From positions 109,970-173,969 of the IMG/VR virus record IMGVR_UViG_3300013426_000018: a stretch of 64,000 nt of DNA; one strand, given 5' to 3'. This DNA is from a virus. Lineage: Duplodnaviria; Caudoviricetes. Below are positions 2,897-48,160 of this stretch, piece by piece. The position numbers and the translations under genes are program-made. How positions within the stretch are numbered: position 1 is the stretch's first letter; every line of letters starts with the position of its first letter. Under the pieces are notes generated by a model that did no database searches, was not told the DNA's origin, and was given only the letters and a program-made list of their open reading frames with translations.

Positions 2897-3880
2897 ATGA
2901 TTACATATATTCTTTTATCTTTGCCTATTATTATTTTAATTGTTCTTACTTTTATTTAGTCAAAAGCAATAGTTAAATATAAAAAAATGGCTTCTGAAGA
3001 AGAACGAGAAATTCATCAACGTATTCAAGAATAGTATAAAGATGAAATTGAATCTTACTAGTAGAGAATTAAAAATTTAAAAATCCAATAGAAGCAAGAA
3101 GTTGATTCATTAGATAATATTAATTAGCATATAGAAGAATCAAGGGCAACCGCAAATCGAAATGCTGAACAATATTACAATTAGTGTCTAGCTACAGTAG
3201 AAGAATAGATTAAATTAAAGCATGAGCAATTACTTCAAAATTATCAGAAAGTAAAAGAAATTCTTGATAAAGAATATGAGTAGAATAAAGTTCTAAAACA
3301 ACAAGAATTAGAATAGTTTGTTCAGCAGTGTGATAATCAAATAAATATCGCTCAAGCTTCATTAGATGAAGTCCAAAAAAAAGTAGACAGTACTACTGAA
3401 GTCGCTAGAAGGGCAGAAGCTGAATAGAATCAAAAAGATTTTTATCGGATTCAATTAAGTGCGGAAGATATTGAAGAAATTCAAAAAATTCGTTCTATTG
3501 AACCTTTTTTGCGTAATAAAGAGCCTTTAAATAAAATAATTTGGAAATATTATTATGAGAAGCCTGTTAATGAAATGATTGGCCGAGTTATTGGTCCAGG
3601 CATTCGTATTGGAATATATAAAATTACAAATATAGAAAATGGTAAATGCTATATAGGGCAAAGTACAAATCTATCAGACAGATGGAAGCAACATGTAAAA
3701 AAAGGCATCGGGGCAGATGGTTTAACAAGAAACAAGCTCTATCCAGCTATGCTAGCTATTGGCCCTGAAAATTTTACATTTGAAATTATCGAAGAATGTA
3801 AAAAAGAACAACTAGACGAACGAGAAGACTATTATCAACAATTTTTTCATGCCATTGATTATGGCTATAGTATAAAGTAA
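2897..3880 (+). CDS. membrane-anchored coiled-coil protein with C-terminal GIY-YIG nuclease (11 TAG=Gln)
   Basis: AGGAGG RBS; N-terminal hydrophobic helix; Q/E/K-rich coiled coil in frame with track ORF 3509..3880 (GIYKIT...YIGQS...RW..H). Confidence 0.85.
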
Positions 3881-33916: not shown

Positions 33917-34384
33917 ATGGAGTTTCTCTCTGAATGGGGCTCTCAAATTGTTCTTTCCTTGGTCGTTGCTGTTTTTACCTATATATTAAATAAAAATATG
34001 AAGGAAAAAGATGAATCTATGAAACAATATCAGGAACTTCTTATTAAAGAAGCAGACAATAAGACCAAAAAAGAAATCGATATTTAGTTAGAGCCAATCT
34101 ATAAAGAACTAGAAGACATTAGAAAACGTATTCTTTCTTTATAGGATAAAGAAAACAAAGACCTCGAGGACATTAATGAAAATTTTGAATTGATAATAGC
34201 TTCGTATAAATACAGACTTGTGCAATTGTGTAAAGAACTTTTAAAATAGGGATTTATGTATTAGTATCAATATGAACACCTCAATGAGTTTTATACTTTG
34301 TACCATAACCTCGGCGGGAATGGCTCGGGAACAAGCTATTATGAAAAAGTCTGTAGTGAATTAAAGATTAGGTCCAATCCATAA
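33917..34384 (+). CDS. membrane protein, possibly lysis-related (4 TAG=Gln)
   Basis: N-terminal TM helix, coiled coil, C-terminal Y..LGGNG motif seen in phage holin-adjacent proteins. Confidence 0.65.
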
Positions 34385-34422
34385 AAAAATAGGGGAGACT
34401 TTTTTAGTCTCCCCTGAATTTT
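34383..34422. terminator. bidirectional terminator at the convergence of the two arms
   Basis: AGGGGAGACT / AGTCTCCCCT hairpin flanked by A and T runs. Confidence 0.8.
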
Positions 34423-34724
34423 ATTTCTTTATAAGCTTTATTCGTTAATCTATTTATTTTTCTTCCATAGTTAGTAATAACTTCAACCACAGTTTCTTCC
34501 TCTCTTGGCGTTAAAGCGATATTATAACTATAAATTACTGCGTGAGTAATTTCATGGCATATAACTTTTTTGATTTTTCTTTTAGGCAACTCTTTATTAA
34601 TATAAATAATATGAAAAAAATTATCACAACACCCAAGAGCCTATTTACCTTCTGGGGTTAGAAGAACAGGATTAAATGATGGTACTAAGGCAAGATTCCA
34701 CCTAATCCCATTTATTATAATCAT
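34404..34724 (-). CDS. small HExxH metallopeptidase-like protein
   Basis: LGCCD....I.I......K.VICHEITHA; ATGA overlap with upstream gene. Confidence 0.7.
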
Positions 34725-35176
34725 TTCATTGAGCCAATTTTAGTTGCAAGAGCAGAAATTTTCTTCTCAAGATACTGCTTTTCTTCTGGAGACGAGTCCT
34801 AAATCATATCCACAATATCAGCAGTTAATTCTTGCATATATCTTTCTAGTTCTTTTAACTAAGTGGCTTTATCTTTGTGCATTTCTTTAGCTTCCATATA
34901 CATACGACGATTTTTATGGCTATGCCCTTCATATTCATCATTATCGTCATTATAATCTTCATATAGATATCTTTTATGGCTACCAGCTCTTTGTTGGTAG
35001 TCATTTTTTTCGTTCATCGCTTCTGTTATGGTAGCATAATAAATGGCTTCCTCCAAATCCTTTAACATATCAATAGCTTCACTCAATTCATGAGTATCTG
35101 CGTTAGCGATATCACAAAGTTCACACTCTACAGCACAAGCGATTTGACGTTTCATTTCATGTAATTTTTGCAACAT
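34721..35176 (-). CDS. acidic helical hypothetical protein of the unknown cassette
   Basis: GGAGG RBS; extends through TAGs to TGA at 34721. Confidence 0.75.
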
Positions 35177-35190
35177 ACCAAAAAACCTCC

Positions 35191-35616
35191 TTAAGCAGTT
35201 CTAATAGCTGTTAAGTTAGCATTCTGGACGTTTATTGCAATTGTAGAGGTATTTTCTACGCTTACAGAAACACAACAGCCACGGGGGACCTCAATAAAAG
35301 TATCTCCATGAACATTAAAATAATTATCAGCTACAGCTGGGGTTACTATCATAGTAGTTGCGGGAATCGTCTCTCCATTTAAAGCAATTGCTAATTGAAT
35401 AGGACCAACTGTCCCGCCAGTAGGAATAGCAATATTGCCAGTAAAAGTAACACGATATCTTGCTCTGCACTGATCGGTTAAACCGCGGAGGGTGACTAAG
35501 CCACTACCTGATCTGTGGATAATATTACAATTGCCACTTATCACTGTATTGGTAAAATAAACATTTTGTCCAGCATTAACAGTTTGTACTGCGTCAGCAA
35601 TAATTTCCATAATCAT
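35191..35616 (-). CDS. beta-sandwich protein (BclA C-terminal/C1q-like), unknown cassette
   Basis: All-beta pattern (YRVTFTGNI, LAIALNGE, VSVEN.S...INVQNANL). Confidence 0.65.
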   Translation of the reverse strand: MIMEIIADAVQTVNAGQNVYFTNTVISGNCNIIHRSGSGLVTLRGLTDQCRARYRVTFTGNIAIPTGGTVGPIQLAIALNGETIPATTMIVTPAVADNYFNVHGDTFIEVPRGCCVSVSVENTSTIAINVQNANLTAIRTA

Positions 35617-35632
35617 TAATCCTCCTTAAAAA

Positions 35633-36355
35633 TTAATTTCCACAATTACAAGTGTTATAGCCATAAAGACCATAATTATAGCATTGAGGAGGACTTACCT
35701 GATAAGCAGGGATTGGGCTTGGACGCAATGTATTTACCAGATAATTATTCTGAGCCTGCTGAGAAGCCGCAAACTTCAAGGTCTAGTTCTCGTTCTGTAA
35801 AGTAGCAATTTTATCCTAAGTTAAGAAGTCTAAAATAGAACGAATACCAGCATTATTATTATCAATAATATCACGAGTACTATCACAAATAGCCCTACGA
35901 GTATCGCAAGACTGAGTAGCTAAATTATAGTTAGTATCAGCGAAACCTCTTTCGAGAGTTCTCTGTGTGGTACAACAGCAACTAGAAATCTAATTAGCAA
36001 TGTTATTAAAACCTTCTTGAGTCTGATAACCTAAAGTGCAAACAGCATTATCAACGCCATGGAAGCCATTAGTAATACCGTTATTTAAAGCATAAGTAGA
36101 ATCAGCTAATCCATAAGTCTATTGATCTAATTTAGAAATTAAAGTCTACTGATCAACAGCAGCCCGCACATCAGCTTGAGTGGCACAAGGAATGTTATTG
36201 CCTTCACCCCAGCCTCCACGGCCCCAGATGAACAAGAACAGAAGGATAATCCACCAACCGGAATTCCCACCAAACATACCATCATTGTTGTAGTCATTGC
36301 TACGAGTAGCCGCAGCAACATCCGCTAAGCTATAACCATTATTACTATTAAACAT
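35633..36355 (-). CDS. Gly-rich TM plus coiled-coil protein with Cys-rich tail, unknown cassette
   Basis: GWWIILLFLFIWG, SCCCTTQR, SQQAQNNYLVNTLRPSPIPAY...CNCGN; several TAG=Gln. Confidence 0.8.
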
Positions 36356-36370
36356 AAAATTTTTTCCTCC

Positions 36371-36601
36371 TTAAAGTCCCATATTTCTTCGGAAATTATT
36401 GAACTCTTGGTCAAAATCTACGCCTTTCTCTTTGCAAATATTTCTTGCTATTTTTTCGATTTCGGCAATTTGACCTTGTTGAGCCAATTGTAGGAGATTA
36501 GCTCCTAATGGAGTATTTGCTTGCTATTGTAACATCATCATAACAAGCTATTGAGGGTTTTGTCCTTGTTTAATTAGTTGAACGATTTGCGTAGGATTCA
36601 T
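36371..36601 (-). CDS. small Gln-rich hypothetical protein, unknown cassette
   Basis: AGGAGG RBS; MNPTQIVQLIKQGQNPQQ...ARNICKEKG. Confidence 0.75.
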
Positions 36602-36613
36602 AACATTTCCTCC

Positions 36614-37021
36614 TTAAAAATTTAACAGTCCAGAAGAAGCCGACTAGGTCTCAGATGCTTTTGGCTATTCTTTTTGCGGTTTAAGCGAAGCTTTTATCTA
36701 TTCTAATGCCTATTGGAATTCTTCTCTTGTCACAAAATTTGTGGCCATACTCTGCTATGTGTCCTACTGTATTTGAATAGGTCGTAGTTCATACATATTT
36801 AAAGTAGCCGTGCCATCAATATTAATCTGTTTTGTATAAATGCGTTTATTGGCTAAATCTGGGAAGTAGAAAATTGAACCATCAAAATCAATAGGCGAAG
36901 CCTTTGCCTCTTCTATTGAAGAAACCATACGTCCTTTTAAGGCCATCGTTTGTGGCTATCGCATATATTGATTTATTGGTTGCTATTGTGGATAATAATT
37001 ATAGTTCTAATTTGGGTACAT
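36614..37021 (-). CDS. hypothetical protein, first gene of the unknown cassette
   Basis: AAGGAG RBS; Y/Q/P-rich N-terminus, LKGRMVSSIEEAKASPIDFDGS, FVTREEF. Confidence 0.78.
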
Positions 37022-37124
37022 ATGAGAGTATCTCCTTTCTATCTCAAAAAATCTTTTATCCTTTCCCTCATTATAATGTAAATTTTGTGACAGATTTATT
37101 ACATATTTTTGACCTGAAAATGGC

Positions 37125-37172
37125 AAAAAAAAAATTTCCCCGACAAGTTTTACTATCTTGTCGGGGGTTTTT
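37125..37172 (-). terminator. intrinsic terminator after holin
   Basis: CCCCGACAAG / CTTGTCGGGG hairpin with U tract. Confidence 0.8.
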
Positions 37173-37179
37173 ATTATTT

Positions 37180-37578
37180 TTAAGAATTTTTTTTAGCTAA
37201 TTTAACTTGAGCTTCAATCATACTTTCAATGAATTTATCTAAATCTCCATAGATACTAGCTAAATACTTTTTAGCTTCATCACTAAGAATATTCATAACA
37301 GCTTCTTTGGTCTTATTAAAAGCTTCCTTTTGAGCAGCTTCATCAAAAGCTCCAGTTTTCTTTAAAGCTTCTACATAAGTCTAATTCGTTGCTTCGACAC
37401 AAGTACAAATAGTTTCAGTCAACATTTTAATATATTTACTTGCTAAAGCATTATCTGTGCTATCAGCTATTTGATTTCCCTTCGCTTTTAGATATTGAAC
37501 TAGATAAGTAGTTAAAACACCTAGAAGAGGAATAACGCAAACATAAAAAATTTCTTGTAAAAGTTTTACCCAATCCAT
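37180..37578 (-). CDS. putative holin (LL-H-like)
   Basis: Single N-terminal TM helix; V.ATN(Q)TYV..LK...IEAQV pattern. Confidence 0.65.
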
Positions 37579-37595
37579 AAATTTTCTCCTTTATA

Positions 37596-38216
37596 TCAAA
37601 GAATTTCCCAATAGAGATCAAATCCATTTTCTAAAGTAGATAATCTATTATAGATTTCTTCCACTGTAGAAACATCGTATTGATAATTTTCACTATCATT
37701 GCCAACAAATTCCATACCATGTAAGACTTTACTTTTTGAAGGCTAAGTGTTTAAATTATATAAATATTTTATACTTTTTCCGTCTTCTGTGCGGGTAGTC
37801 TAATAAAATTTAATAGAAAAAGTTACGTCCCCCGCAAAAACGGTAGCAGGGCCTTCAATGACCCAAGGGAATGCTATTTTTTCATCTTCAGCAAAGGTGG
37901 TCACATCTTTATAAGTTGGGACATATATATAACCGCTCTTTCTGGCTTCTGGGTCAGCATTTTTATATTGAATTAAAACAGTTATATCATCTGACCCTAA
38001 GTCCTTCATATCAAAATAACGGTCACATTTAAAATAGATAGTTTCCGCACGATGGTCATATTGAACACTTAAAAACTAAGGAGCATTAATGATTCTAGTT
38101 TCTAAATTTATTTCATAAATAGGCTCATCTTTTGGAAGTGGAATAATTTGATTCTATTTATTCTTACTATTTATTTGATGTAATAATTCATTATAATCAA
38201 CAGGAGAAGTAATCAT
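37596..38216 (-). CDS. BppU-like baseplate/tail-associated protein
   Basis: DHRAETIYFKCDRYFD.KDL ... FPWVI..AT..AG.V.FSIKF. Confidence 0.6.
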
Positions 38217-40106: not shown

Positions 40107-40313
40107 TTACTCTTGACCATTTATTTCATACCAGCTATCTAAATCCCTCTCAGAAATAATAACTGTTGATACTTTCTTAACTCCATTCGTTAAAAGTTTA
40201 TCTTTACTAGCAGTTAATTGATATTTCTTTACGCAAGGAGTCCCAGGTAAATAAATACCAGTAGTAATAGTACCATTATCACCTAAATAAACAAAAAGTT
40301 CATTTTTTATCAT
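40107..40313 (-). CDS. small hypothetical protein (tail-fibre-chaperone-like position)
   Basis: 68-aa ORF with ATGA overlap with the giant gene. Confidence 0.7.
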   Translation of the reverse strand: MIKNELFVYLGDNGTITTGIYLPGTPCVKKYQLTASKDKLLTNGVKKVSTVIISERDLDSWYEINGQE

Positions 40314-43300
40314 TTATTTGTTCCTCCTTTATAGAAAGTCCAATTGAATAAACCAGCTTCTTGATCACCTCTTACGAAATACTAAAATAGCTAATAATTG
40401 CCAATTGTATCATCAATCTTAGAATACTTATTACTATAAATAATAATATTCTAAAAACCTTGATCAAAGGTTCCTGTTATACCATAATTTTGGCTGAATA
40501 AGGCAGAAGGCTCTTGCCCAAGGGAGTTATAATACTCAAAAGAAAGTAAAGAAGGTTTATCAGAACTCCCAAGCTATAGTGTCCATCCTTGCAACATATA
40601 CTAACTATTAAAGGCATCTGGATTAGCGTATCTTAATTCTCCGGGAATATATAACGTAACATTAGAATTAGTTGGACAAGAAAAAGCTCTGTTAAAAGCC
40701 TGCTATCCAACTATAAACATCTTTGAACTTAACCCATGGTTTGGCTATGAATAAATTTCAGCATCTAACTCACAATTGACAAATGCTTTTGTATCAACAA
40801 ATCTGATTGTATTTGGTGTAAAATCGAAATACTTTAAATAAGATACTTGAGTTCCATAATTATCTATATGGGTTTGTTCATTCTCGAAAGCACTAGCTCC
40901 AATTTTTAAAATATTACTCTTTTCTTTCTCGCAGAATACATGAGTAATTTTCTGTTTATCTGCAAAATTGCTATCTACTAAAATAACTGTTGCAGTGACT
41001 TCATTTCCGGAAGTATCAATATAAGTACCAGTGGCAGGAAGTGTAATTTTACCCTATAAAATTAATCCAGGTTTAATTGAAATTGCACATCCTTTGAATC
41101 CACCTTCATAAGAAGGAGAAGGTACTCTATCATTTCTATTTGAAAAGTAACTATTCATACTCAAATAGTAATCATCATCGGTATAGGTAGCTGGGGCAAA
41201 AGTAAACCATTCTGGATGAATAATGGTGCGAACATCATTAAGTTTACGATATTTAGCATAAAATACCATGTCGCTCATAGAAATCATGCTCTCAATATCA
41301 TCAAGCTTATCTCCACCATTAGTTAAACTATATCCTACAAAATCCCAAGTTTCATATAACCCCATATCAACGTCTTCAGGGTGATAAGGAATAGTATTAG
41401 GAGTTATTAAATTCTTACCATAATCAATCTAAAAAGATTCAATTTCACTATCATCATAATTTTTATAAATAATATTAAAGGCATGAATACGAAATATAGC
41501 ATAATAAGTATAATCAAATTGATTCTCAGTAATAACTTCTTCCCAAGCAGTACCTTTAGTATATTTTGGGGTCTTAGTATTCCTGTCTGTATCCCAACCC
41601 AAGAAATCATAATAATCTTTTTCAGGTTTATATAAAATCCAAGGGTCTTTAAAAGCAGTATTTCCTGCATTAAACTCTTCAATAGAAATTTTCTAAATAG
41701 AAGGCTAAGTTATATTAATATCTTTAAAACTAACATATTTTTCACTGTTGGTTCCAGCATCCCAAATAACAAACTTTGCACTATACCCTTTAGTAACTCT
41801 ATTAACAAAAATTGTTAAATCTTGATATTTCTATTGTAAAGCATAAATGTCCCCTTCATCGATGGCCGTATCATTATCTATATAAATAATACCACTAATT
41901 ATCGGCTTAGTTGAAGAAGTCTCTCCTTGGAAATGTGAATCCGTATCCTATAAAGCTACAAGCATATCAAAACTATCATTGTTTATCATTAAAGAATCCT
42001 CAAAATATCCTTCATTATAATAATACATTTGACCGCTTAAAACTTTTCCAGTGAAATCTTTATCCGTAGAATAAGTATAAGATTCAAGCCCATAATGCCC
42101 ATTGTCATAATAATATTTAGTACTGTTATTAGCGTCATAGATAGCTCCTTCAGTTAACTATTCATATGGACTCCAATTAATATCTTTCATAACAATAGTA
42201 GGAGATTTATCGGTATCTTTATAAGCTAAATATAATCTCTTTAATAACTTATAACTACCATAATGTAAAGAATCTTCACTAATTCTTAAAGACGTAATTG
42301 AAGAGTTCATTGCTCCTGAATAGATGTCTTCGCTACCTTCATTAAAATATCCTTCAAGATATAAACCTTGGGGAGGTATTGGACGACCGTCTTCTGAGAC
42401 ATTGTCATAATTAATCTATTTTTCTTTACTAGTAATTAAAATGGTTAAAGCATATGGATTAACAAGATTTAGTCCTGTCACAGAAGCAGGTAAATATAAA
42501 GTATTTAAAGCCGGAGACTCAGCAAATTTAATACTTACAAGATTACTTGCACCAATAGCACGAAAATTCTCCAGTTTCTAAGATGCAGTTAAATCAACAA
42601 CTTGCTCATTTTTAAAACCTAAATTACTTAAATTCATTTCTTTAAGTAAGGGCATTGTCGCTAAAGACGTTTTACCAACATTATGATTATACCAAGTTTT
42701 TTTAATAGTCTAAGCATTATCTAAAAAATCTGTACTACTAGGAGCATCATGCCCAAGTTCAAACCGAATCATTTTATCAAATGAGCCATTCATCTCAATT
42801 TCTGCCCAGTATAAATTATATAGATTGCTTATTTCAGACATTAAATTCATTCCATAAATATAGCATAACTATTCATGATAATTAGCTTTTGTAGCAAGTC
42901 CTAACCTCAATCCGCTCATTTCATACTAGACAGTATTTATACCATCAAACTTTTGAGAGGGGTAATTAGTATCTTGGTCTTCACCAGCAATAACATAACT
43001 ACTGCGAATAGGACGCATATTTATCCAATACTCACCATCAAAATCATGTCTCTTAATTCCGTATTCTATATTATCCTACCAATAATTAGTAATTTTATCA
43101 TCTGTATACTCACCAATCCAATTATCAGAAATACTAGGATTAGAGGACATATCGTTAGCAGAAATACGACCAACAATACTATTAGTACCACCACGAGCAT
43201 AATTACCTTGGCCCAACCAAGAATCAATATAATCCATACGATTAGATAAGAATTGTTTTCTTGACTATTGTCTATCACCTTGAAGAGCATAGAAATAAGT

Positions 43301-46300
43301 ACCATTATCAATTTCGTGATAAGCACCATTCCCTATATACCAACCAACTTTTAATTCATTAGCTTTTGAATTAGTAATAGTAATATATTTAAAATACATA
43401 TCCAAATTGGTAGCAATTAAAGGCCTAATTCCGCGACAAGCAATATTATCAGTAATTTCTGGATCAAAATTATACCATTTTTCAATATTCTCAATAGAAG
43501 TTAAAGGAGCTTTATCAGTATTAATTTTATCAAAAACATTCTAATCAGTTCCTTTTAGATTCTTATAGGCAGCAAGGATATAAGAATCTTTAAAACAACT
43601 ATAAAAATTATTCCATAAAACACTATCAGATGTTGAAAAGTTATTCGCTTCAGTAGCATCAACATTAAATTCAAAAGAGGGGATACCAGAATTGTTAATT
43701 CCTAATTGAGTATCAATATCATAGAAAATAGGATACCAAATATACTCTCCACCCTCTTCTTGCGGACCCCAAGAAGCCATCATACAGTTTTTACCACGAG
43801 AATCATAACATTCAAAGAATTCAGTCATAATGAAATAAACAGATAAATATTCCATATCAAAATGTTTATTTACTTCACTCTTGAATTTTGCAATACGATA
43901 TTCTTTTGTCTCATGGGTATAAGAGATACCATAATAAGTTACTGTAATTGGTTCATAATATAATCCCTAATTAAAGGCTTCCTCTGTAGGAGTTTCTACT
44001 TTCGTATAAGCATCAGATTTCTTTGGATTGCCATTTTCATCATACTAATGAGTTTTATTAATAAAAGTATAATATTCTTTAGATATATCAAATGCGCCAC
44101 TTGCGGGAGCCATTATTTTATCACAGATTTTATCTAGCTCTTCTTCATTTAAAGATATTAATTCATAATAATCAGAAATCTAGCTATCAAAAGAATCAGC
44201 ATCAATTAATTGATAAAGATCATCAACTTTTTTATAATAAGTATTTTTCTTATAAAGATATTTTTCTTCACAGATATAAGCATTTCGATAAACGTCTTCA
44301 TTTTCATCATACTCATAATATGTTTTTGAAGAATCGTAGCTTACAGCTGGAGTATATCCACCATTATCATTTTGCTCATAGAATTTACCTACAACAAAAA
44401 TCTATTTACCAACAGGGGCTATTGAATAACCACCTTGAGAAGGGACAGAAGACGTATCAGTGCTCCAAACCCATTGGCAAACTTTTTCCCAATTTCGATA
44501 TAAATAGAGTAAATACTTACCGGCCTTAAGAGCTTCATTTGGATTTTCAGAATTAACCACTCCAGGAATAGGATAACCATTTTCTTCAGAAAGACCAAAA
44601 TCTTTCTACATTCCAGTAATTGTGTCAGCAAGATCCTAGGGGTCTGCTGCAGCTGGATTCATTAAAACATCTAAATAATCTTCATTAGCATTGTATCGAT
44701 ATTCAAAATTATCTACGATATTTAAGCCCATATTTGCATTAAAACGACCATCTTTAGCATCTTCTTCCTTATCGCGTAAGAAAGAAAGTTTTACTCTATT
44801 CTGAGGATCTTTAAAAGAGCAATACTATCTATTATTGGCTGAGAATTCCCAACATTCAGCGATATCTTTAACTTTAGCGTCTTTACCTTTAATAGTTTTT
44901 ACATATTTGGTAGTAATCTTTTTATTTGGACTGAAACCTAAAACATCATCACTACCCTTATCCAAAAGCATTCTATAATAGCCAATGAATAAATAACTAC
45001 CATCGGTTCTCTTTTGGAACATCATAAGAGGGAAGCCCTCCATTGAAGTCCTATAATCATCCCAAACTATTCTATTTTTAATAGGACTATTTAAGTTTTC
45101 TGTCCCATCAAAAGCTTTTTTATCAATATAGTCTTTTAAAGGATGCTTAGTATAAGCATTGCCAGCCATATTAGCAAAACCTGCGTTATAAGATCCAGAA
45201 GATTCCATATAATCAACCTTAAGAGTCCATCTATCAGTAGCATTAGTATAATTATTTAAATACCAGCCATCATTTAAACGACATTCTTCATGACCATAAT
45301 ATTTGGGGTCTTCTTCTACTTTAGAAGATTCCTCAACATATTTATTAGCATAGGGGCCTCTATTCATATATATGCTTAGAAGACTTTCTTTTTCAAAAGT
45401 TCCACCCTCTGGTTTAGAAGCATCTTCTGTCCAAACGTCTACATCTTTACATTTAGTCTTTCCTTTAAAATTTTTTCTAGGATAAAACTAAGAAGAAGTT
45501 CCTTGTAAAGTTAAAGAAATTCTTTCCTTTTCTGGAATAGCTTCATCAATTAAATCCTCAGAAATAGTTGTTGTAAAAGAAGGACAATGGTGTTTATAAT
45601 AAATTTTAACAGCTTCTTCAATTTTATCTCTATTAGTTTCACTCTTTGAAATTAAACCATCATTTTTACATAAATCTTCAAGTTCACCATTTCGATAAGC
45701 AAGTTCCAAAGGAATATTAACGAATTCTGCTTTCACACAAATTGCGTTACCTGCTTTACTATAAGGTAAATCATCTGTCTTATTGACAGAAGTATCTAAA
45801 ATCATATAGGGCATCAAATAAGTATTACTTAAATGAGTTTCGTTATAAGTATTTATTTTATTAAAATCTAGCTAATATTCACCCAATACATCATTACTTA
45901 TGGCTAAAGACATAGTCTAATCATAAATTACAACGTCTTTACGATCAACGGCATAATTAATACAAACGTCACTAATATCCAAAAAGTCATTATAAACTCT
46001 TAATTTATAAAGACTAATATCACAATTGTTTGAATTAAAAACAATTCTAGCATCTCTAATTTGGAAAGTTTCATTTTCCAAGCTATTCTTAATAACACCG
46101 GTAATAACACCATTGATAAAAATAAATAACAATTTTAAGTAATAATTATATGAAAATGTTAAATTTATCATTTCCTTTTCGACAAAAGAAACACTTAAAG
46201 TATTCTATCCATTAGTAAAGAAAGTATCCTATGTACCAATGCAAATACCAGTAGAACCAGTATATAAACTCATAACAAGATTTTTTGTATTTATAATTTT

Positions 46301-48160
46301 TAGGATATAATCAAAAAGTAAATTATCATATTTAATGCCTTTAGGGTTTAAATTTTTTCCATTAGAATCTAACCAAGAGCTCTTGGATAAATTAGCCTAT
46401 AGAAAAGCATCATAGTTATTATACTAAGTCTAATTCTAATCAATGAAAGCATTATACCAATCAGTATCTTTAAACTCTGGGTCGTCATCGCCTGTAGCAG
46501 CTGGGTCCTTGTATTTATATCTTGTAACATTTGTAACTAAATTAGAATAGTTCTAAATATTCGTTAATTTTAACTACACTTCAACAGTATTACTTAGTTC
46601 ATTTGCGGTTGAGCCACTAAAAACAAGATTTCCAATAGGAATCTCCAAAGAAGCTCCATTAGAAATTTTTAAACTGGTTTGAATATCATCATCCCATTTG
46701 CCCCAGCCATTATTATGCCAGTTGAAATTATTAAAACTAGCACTAATACCATTATTACTATACTTTTGTCTATTAGCTTTAGACTCATTATTAGAACGAC
46801 CAGTAGGATCAAAATTAAATTTTAAAGCACTCTGTTTAATAATTTCCATAGGTCTTTCTGGGTCCCGTTCAATGGTAATAGTAAATTGACGAAATACATC
46901 GCCACAAATAATTTTATAAGTACTAACACCTAAACCCTCATAAGGGATTTCCCAATAAGTGTATTCAGTCATATTGGTAATATTAACTTCACCAATATTT
47001 GAATTATTTCTATTATAAATAATATGAACACTATTCACATTGCTTGGATTATAGACCATATAAGGAATAGTAATAGTTTCGTAATTATAATATTTATTCT
47101 TAAAAGTTCCCATCCAAATGATAGGCGTAGAATTGCCCTATTCATAAATAGGAATCTCATATTCCAAAGCTGGAATTTCAATGTTCTCATCTTTGACAGG
47201 AATGTCATAGGTTCCACTATTATAATGCAATTGAATCTTAACTTTATGATATCCATGAGTACAATACTCAGAGGGAACTGTAATAAATTGGGTGCCAGAC
47301 TCACTTGATTTTAAAGGAACTTCTTTAATAATATCATCATCAAAATAATATGTTAAAATTTTCTAAAGATTACCTTCAACCACACAAGTCAAATTAACAG
47401 GATTATTTGCATTATATCTAATAGTTGAAGAAAATCCACTCGGATAATTTAAACTCAATGGAGAAGTCATTACAGTAAAAGATTTTACATTAGGCTTATC
47501 ATGACCTTGGCTAGATAAAGTTAATGTAATTTCAGAAGTAGCAGATTCTCTTAACCCTTCTAACTCTACATAAGTTCTAACTTCATTATCAACAGTCATC
47601 TAACCCTGAATATATGGGGTATTGGTTGTTCCCAAAGAAGATTTAATAGCCACGCTCCAGCTTAAAGTCATTCTATCGTCTACTGGAACTCCATCTACTT
47701 TTGCAGCAACAGGTGTAAAATATATTTTCAAACTTTGCCCATTAACCATATTCGCAGGAACGTCTTCAATATTTAATCGAGGTCTTAAATTATCTCCTCC
47801 ACCACCGCCAGATAAAGCAAGAATTTCGCAAATATAATACTCATCATTAGAATCAAGAACTTTGTAAAAAGTCCCATCAGCGTTAATAATAACATCATTT
47901 TCTTTTGGAGAGTCTTCTTTCTTTTCCATAGCACTTTTTGGAAAAAGATAATTCTTTGTTACAGCGTCTTCTTGAACAGTATCAGCATTTCCATAATAAA
48001 TTGCGGCCCCTGAGCCACCTAAAGGGATACGTCTATCTTCGGTATCTAAATAAATTTTTCCGCTATCAGTAGCACAGTAAAAATATCCTTTAGTCAGTTC
48101 ATGTTCAGCAATTTTTGCTTCTGTCCCTTGGACTGGACGGAAAGAAACATTATTGTCCAT
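40310..48160 (-). CDS. giant (~2616 aa) putative virion protein with LamG-like, CotH-kinase-like and leucine-rich-repeat regions
   Basis: Eight track ORFs share one frame separated by TAGs; QGTSS(Q)FYPRKNFK, LKVDYMESSG, DSRGKN, FYDIDTQLG; not every codon checked. Confidence 0.8.

Follow-up and report, generated by a model that had tools for sequence, protein, structure and literature searches.

A Widespread, Dispensable Six-Gene Cassette Adjoining the Holin Gene of a Stop-Codon-Recoded Gut Phage May Encode a Rod-and-Hub Complex

Introduction

ExsF is a trimeric adaptor whose inter-protomer clefts bind the Pro-rich leader peptides of fibre proteins (PMC12357932). In the exosporium of the Bacillus cereus group, ExsFA/BxpB (7r1m, 8d02, 9h3d) is a stand-alone C1q/TNF jelly roll of ~140-170 aa, belongs to the sporulation regulon and has collagen-like glycoproteins as partners. 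The C-terminal domain of BclA and F-BclA (1wck, 9h38; PF18573) ends a collagen-like stalk, while the Sf6 tail needle, gp26, joins a helical rod to a C1q/TNF-fold knob. The Rz/Rz1 spanins carry conserved cysteines and a Pro-rich end. Minigluzincins (selecase MJ1213 and projannalysin; 4qhf, 4jix) are small soluble HExxH proteins with a downstream Glu.

Here, we analyse a cassette of six genes, gA to gF, which lies in a 64,000-nucleotide stretch (the window; positions 109,970 to 173,969 of IMG/VR record IMGVR_UViG_3300013426_000018) of a 174-kb stop-codon-recoded gut phage. Full-text searching of the literature revealed no description of the cassette, a paper on the archaeal virus MSTV1 held no relevant proteomics, and no published system accounts for the cassette's role.

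Results

Gene Layout, Terminators and Promoter Motif

Translation of the region with table 11 yields only scattered ORFs of 30-140 aa. When the stops were marked separately, TAG was seen to fall within continuous frames, which end at TAA and TGA. With TAG read as a sense codon (the gene calls of the cassette were made with TAG=Q), six minus-strand genes with 20 in-frame TAGs are revealed at 34404-37021: gA (36614-37021; 135 aa, nine TAG codons), gB (36371-36601; 76 aa, two), gC (35633-36355; 240 aa, five), gD (35191-35616; 141 aa, none), gE (34721-35176; 151 aa, two), and gF (34404-34724; 106 aa, one). Gaps between the genes are 12-16 nt, an AAGGAGG-like ribosome site is located 6-9 nt upstream of each of gA to gE (aaaggaga in the case of gA), and the start of gF overlaps gE by ATGA, which points to translational coupling.

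The cassette directly follows the holin gene (37180-37578, minus strand; phrog_13712 'holin', E 1e-34), the product of which has one N-terminal TM and a helical domain. It shares its strand with the structural genes and lies at the end of the late strand, 3' of the holin. No endolysin was found near the holin; the 174-kb record has no Amidase_2, Amidase_3 or GH25, and no integrase was seen in the examined parts of this large phage.

Upstream, an intrinsic terminator at 37125-37166 on the minus strand (a 10-bp G+C stem, CCCCGACAAG/CUUGUCGGGG, with U10; -18.2 kcal/mol, z -4.6, none of 200 shuffles folding equally well) closes the holin transcript and insulates the cassette. Downstream, a bidirectional terminator at 34383-34415 (10-11-bp stem, U7; -20.2 kcal/mol, z -4.8) serves both the cassette and the convergent operon on the plus strand; the final codons of gF (RGD-stop) lie in its 5' stem. 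The original prediction, which described a self-contained, tightly coupled operon with terminators on both sides, is thus confirmed. It also placed a promoter-like motif upstream, and here the outcome is divided. A perfect TATAAT hexamer is present at 37070-37075, followed by a purine-rich leader, GAGGGAAAGGATAAAAG (37053-37075 for the two together, minus strand), but no convincing -35 element accompanies it, and a general σ70 scan revealed no enrichment over shuffles. The combination of TATAAT and GA(R)(R)GGAA(R)(R)GA(W)AAAA precedes gA once per locus in cassettes that are only 45-60% identical in protein. The leader has no stable fold, and Rfam gave no match across 34200-37700. A shared late promoter was considered and rejected, the motif upstream of gA not recurring within the window.

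Distribution, Selection and Loss

The gA-gB-gC-gD-gE-gF order was found again in 72 of the loci fetched: 25 of the 75 viral loci retrieved via gC, five of the 45 from genomes, and 42 of the 54 retrieved via the neighbouring holin. Co-occurrence of the six genes is far beyond chance, and synteny across the fetched loci bears out the earlier remark that similar clusters exist in Clostridia phages. None of the six proteins matches a characterised virion or lysis protein. The order occurs both in phages (24-400 kb), whether recoded or using the standard code, and in Clostridia genomes; genome matches are mostly from Clostridia, with others from Paludibacteraceae, Gastranaerophilaceae and Bacilli bins. 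Carriers include unrelated virion types (sipho-, myo-, podo-, and crAss-like phages), and the culturable ones are Butyrivibrio phage Ceridwen and several Clostridium perfringens phages. As for location, the holin-then-cassette order is preserved in about 45 relatives; in crAss-like, Dulem and bajarodcaudo phages the lysis genes lie upstream of the cassette, which in temperate phages occupies a moron-like position between lysis genes and integrase; it is also found among early genes in C. perfringens phages, and after tail-fibre genes.

Purifying selection acts on each of the six genes (dN/dS 0.03-0.25). At the same time, three independent clean deletions, with flanks 96-98% identical on both sides, were revealed by comparing loci L158 and L175 with L154, and L168 with L169 and L172. 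Because these deletions occurred in near-identical genomes, the cassette is dispensable, and they argue against an essential role in lysis. We conclude that the cassette is a real, very widespread, mobile accessory operon, which is dispensable yet strongly conserved.

gC, a Predicted Helical Rod

The descriptions of all six proteins in the original prediction, from a Y/Q/P-rich gA to an HExxH-containing gF, proved accurate. Scans of the six proteins and of longer homologues against Pfam, PHROGs, NCBIfam and PADLOC returned only three PHROGs of 'unknown function' (phrog_16490 for gC, E 5e-38; phrog_20016 for gD, E 3e-56; phrog_1233 for gF, E 9e-16) and sub-threshold HExxH matches; the PADLOC defence models gave noise only (capP, E 0.02, for gF; Cas8e, E 0.01, for gE). 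Direct reading of the sequences revealed no signal peptide or export signal in gA, gB, gD, gE or gF, and no lipobox in any cassette protein.

The gC protein, which is the core of the cassette, begins with an acidic N-tail (3.1 D/E versus 0.6 K/R) and an invariant G..G, followed by a hydrophobic run flanked by W/G (residues 32-45), a Gly/Trp-rich linker, and a long helix (residues 69-210) that carries an invariant CCC and further Cys at heptad-compatible spacing. The C-end contains an invariant Pro-rich motif, RPxPxPAY..P, and then a Cys-rich end (alignment A1). In the AF2 model the helix spans residues 69-210, with pLDDT above 90 for 141-210 and below 50 for the N-terminus; its ~140 residues would measure about 20 nm if straight. 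The family comprises at least 1,599 clusters at 50% identity and at least 8,000 at 90% identity, without a match to gC in Pfam, NCBIfam or PADLOC, and takes in the crAss-like "spike protein/glycoprotein" of Bacteroidota phages (hhalign 99.9%). In the Atlas, the best 30 clusters neighbouring a gC homologue are all unnamed viral proteins. The Pro-rich tail persists in cassettes that lack gD or have an unrelated beta protein, gD2, in its place, so gD is not the sole possible partner of the tail.

The hydrophobic run has a median length of 16 aa and a median KD19 of 1.54 in 62 sequences; KD19 reaches 1.6 in 25 of them, making the segment borderline for a transmembrane helix. If gC were nevertheless inserted N-in/C-out, its rod, whose length roughly equals the thickness of a Gram-positive wall, could cross the wall and present gD on the infected or lysogenic cell, where it would mask a receptor or block superinfecting phages. 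The position of the segment near the N-terminus, the moron-like site in temperate phages, the cassette's own promoter and terminators, and its dispensability would all suit such display. However, gD and the other partners carry no export signal, and an acidic N-tail with almost no K/R is the opposite of an N-in signal anchor. Furthermore, the same core is present in phages of hosts with differing envelopes, PADLOC gave no match, and the carrier here is a large phage, with no integrase seen in the parts examined, in which the cassette sits on the structural-gene strand after the holin. We therefore consider display on the cell unlikely, and surface display of the membrane-anchored fibre proposed originally becomes doubtful, given five partners without signal peptide, the short hydrophobic run and the acidic N-tail; a rod on the cytoplasmic side, or one without a membrane anchor, fits the latter two features better.

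A profile of the 62 gC sequences had no significant match in the PDB (keratin and HA2, E 0.04-1). The HA2 chains were matched at E 0.19-1.2 over the Gly-rich segment and the helix, and TatA was likewise weak. The likeness to influenza HA2 and TatA (E 0.2-1), the conserved cysteines and Pro-rich end of the Rz/Rz1 kind, the adjoining holin here and in relatives, and the sites downstream of lysis genes would agree with a spanin-like or class-I-fusion-like gC (propeptide, Gly-rich hydrophobic peptide, coiled coil), which would act once the holin has fired, disrupting or fusing membranes. Such an accessory to lysis is nonetheless a poor prospect: most carriers infect monoderm Clostridia, for which no spanin is needed, the HA2 matches are not significant, a lipobox partner is missing from the cassette, deletions are tolerated, and a C1q-fold protein and three low-complexity proteins would be left without a role.

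gD, a Predicted C1q/TNF-Fold Knob

The AF2 monomer model of gD (pLDDT 95, pTM 0.87) is that of a stand-alone C1q/TNF-fold beta sandwich of the BclA-CTD/ExsF branch. The top Foldseek matches were 9h38, 7r1m, 8d02 and 1wck (E 8e-9), and VIA comparison gave Z 18.0 for 9h38, 16.5 for 1wck, 16.2 for 8d02, and 15.9 for 9h3d (rmsd ~2 A, 124-131 of 141 residues), while C1q and TNF proper scored Z 13-15.6. The BclA-C/C1q-like character ascribed to gD beforehand is upheld by this match of folds. At the level of sequence, no Pfam family was matched at E<=0.1, including BclA_C (PF18573) and C1q (PF00386), and nothing in the PDB was found below E 0.2. The protein starts straight in the beta domain, with no collagen-like GXY stalk or N-terminal exosporium leader, and has conserved Cys in QCR and GCC. 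A search among longer proteins revealed seven gD relatives, none with a collagen Pfam family; three of the seven are 353 aa long, the length of a gD+gE TAG read-through. With a mean column identity of 56%, gD is the most conserved cassette protein. Being essentially always stand-alone as well, it suits the part of a hub more than that of a variable receptor-binding tip. Genes that follow gC in crAss-like and C. perfringens phages showed no detectable homology to gD (hhalign probability <1%). Comparison of gD2 with gD was also negative, and the gD2 profile matched nothing in the PDB.

All the structures closest to gD are those of exosporium or appendage proteins from Bacillus, the low-complexity partners resemble coat proteins in being rich in Cys, Tyr, Gln and Arg, and genome matches are mostly from Clostridia; the cassette could accordingly be imagined to add exosporium-like proteins to spores of infected or lysogenic hosts, and the spore coat or exosporium was a target named in the original prediction. 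That proposal found no support. The gC of crAss-like phages of Bacteroidota is a true family member, matches extend to the Paludibacteraceae, Gastranaerophilaceae and Bacilli bins, gD lacks a Pfam BclA_C sequence match, and no sporulation-type promoter or regulator, nor anything else specific to sporulation, was seen at the cassette. Modification of the spore surface is thus very improbable.

Other structural neighbours of gD are the phi812 central spike knob, a fibre domain of cyanophage A-1(L), and the A4 portal-tail complex; its nearest named neighbours in the Atlas are BclA_C clusters (0.88-0.91) and Sf6 tail-needle knob (Phage_tail_NK) clusters (0.90). A rod with a TNF-type knob is the typical build of phage fibres, all parts would be produced in the cytoplasm, which is also the site of virion assembly, and the cassette may come after tail-fibre genes. 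Together, gC and gD might then form an optional virion appendage, a coiled-coil fibre with a C1q/TNF knob, like the Sf6 tail needle or fibritin-like whiskers. Yet the cassette moves among sipho-, myo-, podo- and crAss-like virions of 24-400 kb genomes, stands outside the tail module with a promoter and terminators of its own, is found among early genes in C. perfringens phages, and has been cleanly lost from three near-identical genomes; moreover, the knob is the most conserved part and not the most variable. An appendage of this kind seems to us improbable.

gA, gB and gE, Low-Complexity and Helical Partners

The gA protein consists of a Y/Q/P/N-rich low-complexity N-terminus, a conserved beta-looking domain of ~55 aa (GRxVSSxEE..VDFDGS..FPD.AN.RIYTKQ.N.DGT; family alignment A3), and a Q/P-rich tail. 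It has no match in Pfam, PHROGs, NCBIfam or the PDB, the best PDB profile match being centrin at E 0.13, and its dN/dS is 0.04-0.05. The Q/N/M-rich, helical gB (dN/dS 0.03-0.18) has the motif NPQQ ... NPM..N ... IE..ARN...E.G.D.D.EF..FK (alignment A6, 27 sequences) and sub-threshold Pfam matches only (DUF6240, E 0.0016, for gB, and GerPC, E 0.034, for a homologue). The acidic, helical gE (dN/dS 0.03-0.2) has homologues of 180-290 aa (alignment A5), whose R/Y/G/D-rich low-complexity middle (RDMDR..GRMYY) is mostly deleted here. Family and PDB scans gave only weak matches to gE; that to an archaeal ArsR/Phr regulator (E 0.003 over a helical stretch) was taken as compositional, and the relationship was rejected.

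gF and Other Cassette Peptidases

Across 24 sequences with 22-45% identity to gF, residues W9, D34, H57-E58-x-x-H61 and E76-E77 are invariant, in agreement with the HExxH peptidase-like assignment made earlier; the family is 103-121 aa in length, with no fused longer forms in a search among longer proteins. By its sequence signature, gF is a predicted minigluzincin-like HExxH...EE zinc peptidase. Pfam matches (DUF6782, M78, SprT) were all below cut-offs, and the best PDB match of the profile, the MJ1213 selecase/minigluzincin, was borderline (E 0.013), followed by projannalysin at E 1.8. Most cassette variants have a putative peptidase, either gF or an unrelated Cys/His protein of 121-125 aa at the other end of the cassette. 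Seven distinct loci of the gC class GYALG have no peptidase nearby, and locus L038 is also without gF; processing is therefore not universal. The crAss-like gC is preceded by a small HExxH protein, which was also considered; its identity with gF was not demonstrable (probability 4%).

Since a peptidase is usually present, and some cassettes have a small Cys/His enzyme, gC might be viewed as a large bacteriocin-like precursor with a leader (LSxxDIAAVTG) that the peptidase removes, the toxin being freed at lysis. The N-terminal motif of gC aligns position by position with LSxxELxxIxGG, the consensus of double-glycine leaders, and the G..FGG before the hydrophobic run is nearly invariant. Against this, no NCBIfam/Pfam leader or C39 match was obtained, the gC of the window has R-S at the 'GG' positions, and genes for immunity or export are missing from the cassette. 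Sorting gC by its N-terminal motif gives three classes, which are mixed across cassettes with Zn-, Cys- and no peptidase, without co-varying with peptidase type, and are not cleanly split by knob type; nor would a toxin need gD, gA, gB or gE. We give the idea hardly any credence.

Discussion

Our tentative preference, which we hold at well under even chances, is for a self-assembling rod-and-hub complex that is built in the cytoplasm and freed at lysis. The operon would use its own -10 promoter and conserved leader and build a self-contained assembly inside the infected cell. The gC protein would form a coiled-coil rod, probably trimeric, with its greasy segment either in the cytoplasmic membrane, the rod being on the cytoplasmic side, or bundling rods together. 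Trimers of gD would make up the hub, on which extended peptides of the partners, most likely the Pro-rich tail of gC, may dock in the manner of exosporium leader peptides in the inter-protomer clefts of ExsF. Scaffold or matrix would be supplied by gA, gB and gE, and gF would trim one partner. The presence of the core in phages of both monoderm Clostridia and diderm Bacteroidota, together with partners that are not exportable, argues for assembly in the cytoplasm, with the complex reaching the outside only at lysis.

The complex would serve neither virion assembly nor lysis itself. Its role outside the cell we infer purely by reasoning: in the extracellular gut phase it may stick, aggregate or protect particles or debris, perhaps hardened by cysteine cross-links, although anaerobic hosts make such cross-linking uncertain. 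The common placement next to holin or lysis genes could instead reflect a membrane or lysis-linked role. A more far-reaching version, to which we assign only a slight chance, is a portable kit for an exosporium-like or occlusion-like matrix in non-sporulating infected cells, with cysteine-laddered rods, C1q-fold hubs and low-complexity glue as its components. Set free when the cell lyses, the matrix would harden through oxidation once outside the gut and would coat or bundle virions or membrane debris, aiding survival and faecal-oral transmission; this, if true, would be a class of function undescribed for bacteriophages.

A set of six proteins that moves horizontally and is not needed for growth, yet has a dN/dS of about 0.05, must give a real advantage in the gut. 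Finding out what this advantage is would supply annotation for thousands of gut-virome genes in one step and could reveal a new kind of phage-made structure, and the culturable carriers make the question directly testable.

Like gC, the Rz/Rz1 spanins and HA2 have a hydrophobic Gly-rich segment, a long helix with Cys, and a Pro-rich end. In contrast to spanins, gC has an acidic N-tail and no N-in signal anchor, there is no lipoprotein partner, the hosts are mostly monoderm, and the cassette is dispensable. The Sf6 tail needle has the same general build as a gC (~240 aa) joined to gD, but the rod and knob of the cassette are products of separate genes, which lie outside the tail module, can be lost, occur in unrelated virion types, and show no sequence similarity to the needle. 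Minigluzincins share with gF a small soluble form and an HExxH with a downstream Glu, though the match is borderline and gF is absent or replaced by the Cys/His protein in other cassettes. The BclA/F-BclA C-terminal domain is the best structural match of gD (rmsd 1.9-2.0 A over 124 residues), whereas gD lacks a stalk and its conservation exceeds what one would expect of a distal tip. ExsFA/BxpB, which, like gD, stands alone, superimposes on gD with VIA Z 15.2-16.2 (131 residues at ~2 A) at 13% identity and without a sequence-level match. It is part of the sporulation regulon, while gD is encoded in a phage late operon behind the holin, and the collagen-like glycoproteins are replaced here by a helical rod and low-complexity proteins. 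By analogy, we infer that gD acts like ExsFA/BxpB, as a peptide-binding trimeric adaptor, with the RPxPxPAY..P motif of gC as the candidate peptide.

Genomic organization of the cassette

The source record, of which the window comprises bases 109970-173969, is 174 kb long and complete by CheckV. Translation of the 34.4-37.1 kb region with table 11 produced a litter of short ORFs. When the three stop codons were marked separately, TAG was seen to recur inside unbroken frames, with TAA and TGA terminating them. TAG is a sense codon across the whole window, on both the replication strand and the late strand; reading it as such opens a neighboring 2,616-aa ORF containing 43 TAGs (40310-48160, minus strand), and an ORF at 2897-3880 (plus strand) contains 11 in-frame TAGs. 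No tRNA genes were found in the 64-kb window.

With TAG read as sense, six consecutive minus-strand genes are revealed: gA (36614-37021), gB (36371-36601), gC (35633-36355), gD (35191-35616), gE (34721-35176), and gF (34404-34724). Spacers between the genes are 12-16 nt long, each of gA-gE is preceded by an AAGGAGG-type ribosome site, and gE and gF overlap by ATGA. Directly upstream of the cassette lies a holin gene (37180-37578, minus strand; phrog_13712, E 1e-34), with a strong terminator 3' of it (37125-37166, minus strand; -18.2 kcal/mol, z -4.6). At the downstream end, a bidirectional terminator (34383-34415; -20.2 kcal/mol, z -4.8) separates the cassette from a convergent plus-strand operon. 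A promoter-like motif, a perfect TATAAT without a -35 element, is located at 37070-37075 (minus strand). The cassette as originally predicted, with six coupled genes, flanking terminators, and a promoter-like motif, was thus borne out in every particular.

Several features of the flanks were also recorded. At 34404-34415 (minus strand), the 5' arm of the downstream hairpin codes for the end of gF, R-G-D-stop, the stop codon being inside the stem. The convergent gene abutting this terminator (33917-34384, plus strand) encodes a 155-aa coiled-coil protein with a TM helix at the N-terminus (phrog_4105/4257), and its position is kept in most relatives. Relatives of the L057 type contain an opposite-strand 238-aa ORF between the holin gene and the cassette (L057:4271-4987, minus strand).

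The TATAAT sequence and a downstream GA(R)(R)GGAA(R)(R)GA(W)AAAA stretch make up a non-coding element 5' of gA (37053-37075, minus strand). The same -10 element and purine-rich leader are present, in one copy per locus, in recoded phages whose proteins are just 45-60% identical (copies at L005:5249-5266, L057:5179-5196, and L068:3990-4007). Judged by sequence, the -10 element and leader travel between phages together with the cassette. The element matches no Rfam family and does not fold stably.

Distribution and natural deletions of the cassette

The gC protein, which matches phrog_16490 (E 5e-38), is the universal core of the cassette family and falls into at least 1,599 clusters at 50% identity and at least 8,000 at 90% identity. 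Among 75 viral contigs (24-402 kb) fetched via gC, which belong to both TAG-recoded and standard-code phages, gC is followed by gD in 42, and all six genes occur in the same order in 25. When loci were fetched via the neighboring holin instead, the complete ordered cassette was present in 42 of 54. Co-occurrence of the six genes is beyond chance, and the ordered sets contradict the possibility, raised with the original prediction, that the genes do not co-occur; nor did any cassette gene match a characterized virion or lysis protein. No publications describing the system were found.

When one genome per species was scanned, 45 loci came up, the majority of them in Clostridia (Oscillospiraceae, Lachnospiraceae, Ruminococcus). 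Isolates are among the carriers, for example Lachnospira intestinalis and Acutalibacter; a few bins were Paludibacteraceae, Gastranaerophilaceae, and Bacilli. Modification of host spores, a candidate function in the original prediction, is the least supported of the explanations considered. In temperate phages, the cassette follows the lysis genes and precedes the integrase gene.

Pairwise dN/dS values are 0.03-0.25 across all six genes, similar to the holin. Three genomes nevertheless carry clean internal deletions of the cassette, with both flanks 96-98% identical to those of intact siblings. Compared with L154, locus L158 lacks 2,634 bp (gA-gD and half of gE) and L175 lacks 2,469 bp (from mid-gA to mid-gF), while L168, compared with L169 and L172, lacks 1,816 bp (gB-gD). 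The three deletions are independent events. In L038, gF is wholly missing. Since clean deletions occur in near-identical genomes, and since L038 does without gF, we conclude that the cassette is essential neither as a virion component nor for lysis. Less probable explanations of its role are an optional virion fiber and a lysis accessory. The latter would accord with the adjacent holin; no endolysin adjoins that holin, and the 174-kb record as a whole has no Amidase_2, Amidase_3, or GH25.

Properties of gC

In an AF2 model, gC forms a single helix over residues 69-210 (pLDDT >90 over 141-210), with a poorly defined N-terminus. Conserved features of the N-terminal part are a short N-terminal motif, G..G, and a W/G-flanked hydrophobic run; further on, there are a CCC, more cysteines ca. 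21 residues apart, a Cys-rich end, and a tail motif RPxPxPAY..P in which P223 is invariant. The hydrophobic run has a median of 16 uncharged residues and a median KD19 of 1.54, reaching at least 1.6 in 25 of 62 sequences, and the tail preceding it is acidic (3.1 D/E versus 0.6 K/R). By sequence, this charge distribution is the reverse of that of an N-in signal anchor, and the segment would be compatible with N-out/C-in insertion or with greasy bundling. No signal peptide could be read from the sequences of gA, gB, gD, gE, or gF. Surface display or superinfection exclusion, the latter also suggested in the original prediction, is a less probable alternative.

The gC family genuinely includes the crAss-like "spike protein/glycoprotein" (hhalign 99.9%, E 6e-32). 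The resemblance of gC to HA2 is non-significant (E 0.2-1) and is probably the source of this label. In the crAss-like phage cr116_1 (L003:4405-7380), the surroundings of the gC homologue encode two small proteins with HExxH motifs (HECLH and HEKNH), along with a beta protein of 136 aa that contains Cys and a Y/E/R/K-rich protein of 74 aa. The layout parallels that of the cassette, with homology of these neighbors to cassette genes not demonstrable.

The knob, the peptidase-like protein, and variant architectures

Of the six proteins, gD is the most conserved (56% mean column identity). Its AF2 model (pLDDT 95), compared by VIA-align, has the fold of the BclA-CTD/ExsF branch of the C1q/TNF superfamily: Z scores were 18.0 with the F-BclA CTD (9h38), 16.5 with BclA (1wck), 16.2 with BxpB (8d02), and 15.9 with ExsF (9h3d), each at ca. 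2 Å, versus 13-15.6 with C1q and TNF proper. The protein nearly always stands alone, just 7 longer relatives having been found, and metagenomic genomes of sipho-, myo-, and podoviruses encode stand-alone look-alikes of 130-145 aa.

In gF, residues H57-E58-x-x-H61 and E76-E77 are invariant, and the best PDB profile match is the minigluzincin selecase (E 0.013). No known relatives of gA, gB, or gE, which are low-complexity or helical proteins, were found.

A second architecture (phage Ceridwen, L040, and L021) is headed by a 121-125-aa Cys/His peptidase-like protein, unrelated to gF, where the first has the HExxH protein gF at its end. The order is the Cys/His protein, diverged gA and gB, gC, a knob, an R/Y/S/G-rich gE, and a seventh protein. 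The Cys/His protein (L002:3077-3451 in Ceridwen, L040:4804-5166, and L021:4655-5170; motif ..GDC[AT]VRA.. / ..H.V......D.WDS..) has no Pfam match. The knob slot is occupied either by gD or by gD2, an unrelated Cys-rich beta protein of ca. 130 aa (L040:6777-7175, L020:6820-7203, L001:5667-6041, and ca. 20 further loci; alignment A8) with the N-terminus M-x-C-x3-C-x2-C. A relation of gD2 to gD or to a PDB sequence could not be detected. The N-terminal arm of gD2, which is rich in Cys, presumably recalls the subunits of endospore appendages (Ena). Because the gC proteins of L021, which has gD, and L040, which has gD2, are 80% identical, the knobs are swapped by recombination. In C. perfringens phages, gA-gB-gC-gD2 sits among early genes. 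Carriers that can be cultured include Butyrivibrio phage Ceridwen (host B. fibrisolvens DSM 3071) and C. perfringens phages such as XP41-N3 and CPD1.

A possible mode of action

Pro-rich leader peptides dock in the clefts of the ExsF trimer (PMC12357932). By analogy, gD trimers may be hubs for extended peptides of their partners, with the invariant Pro-rich tail of gC as the best candidate peptide. In such a scheme, gC would form a coiled-coil rod with a ladder of cysteines; gA, gB, and gE would be scaffold or matrix; and gF, a putative peptidase, would trim one of the partners. Signal peptides are lacking, the hydrophobic run of gC is short with an acidic N-tail, and the phages that carry the gC core infect hosts whose envelopes differ; for these reasons, the complex would be assembled in the cytoplasm or at the inner side of the membrane, and only lysis would bring it outside. 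As phages can propagate without the cassette, yet its genes are strongly constrained, the role of the cassette may belong to the extracellular gut phase. A released toxin is an unlikely alternative.

The reading as a whole, a cytoplasmic rod-and-hub assembly that is released at lysis and acts outside the cell in the gut, is put forward tentatively and is rather doubtful. It is weakened by two observations: the Pro-rich tail of gC is kept in cassettes without gD, and the classes into which gC falls by its N-terminal motif show no co-variation with the type of peptidase, one class having no peptidase at all. As to the known proteins from which the analogy is drawn, gD has no sequence-level match to ExsF, the BclA CTD, or its other fold relatives, but the fold is common to them.
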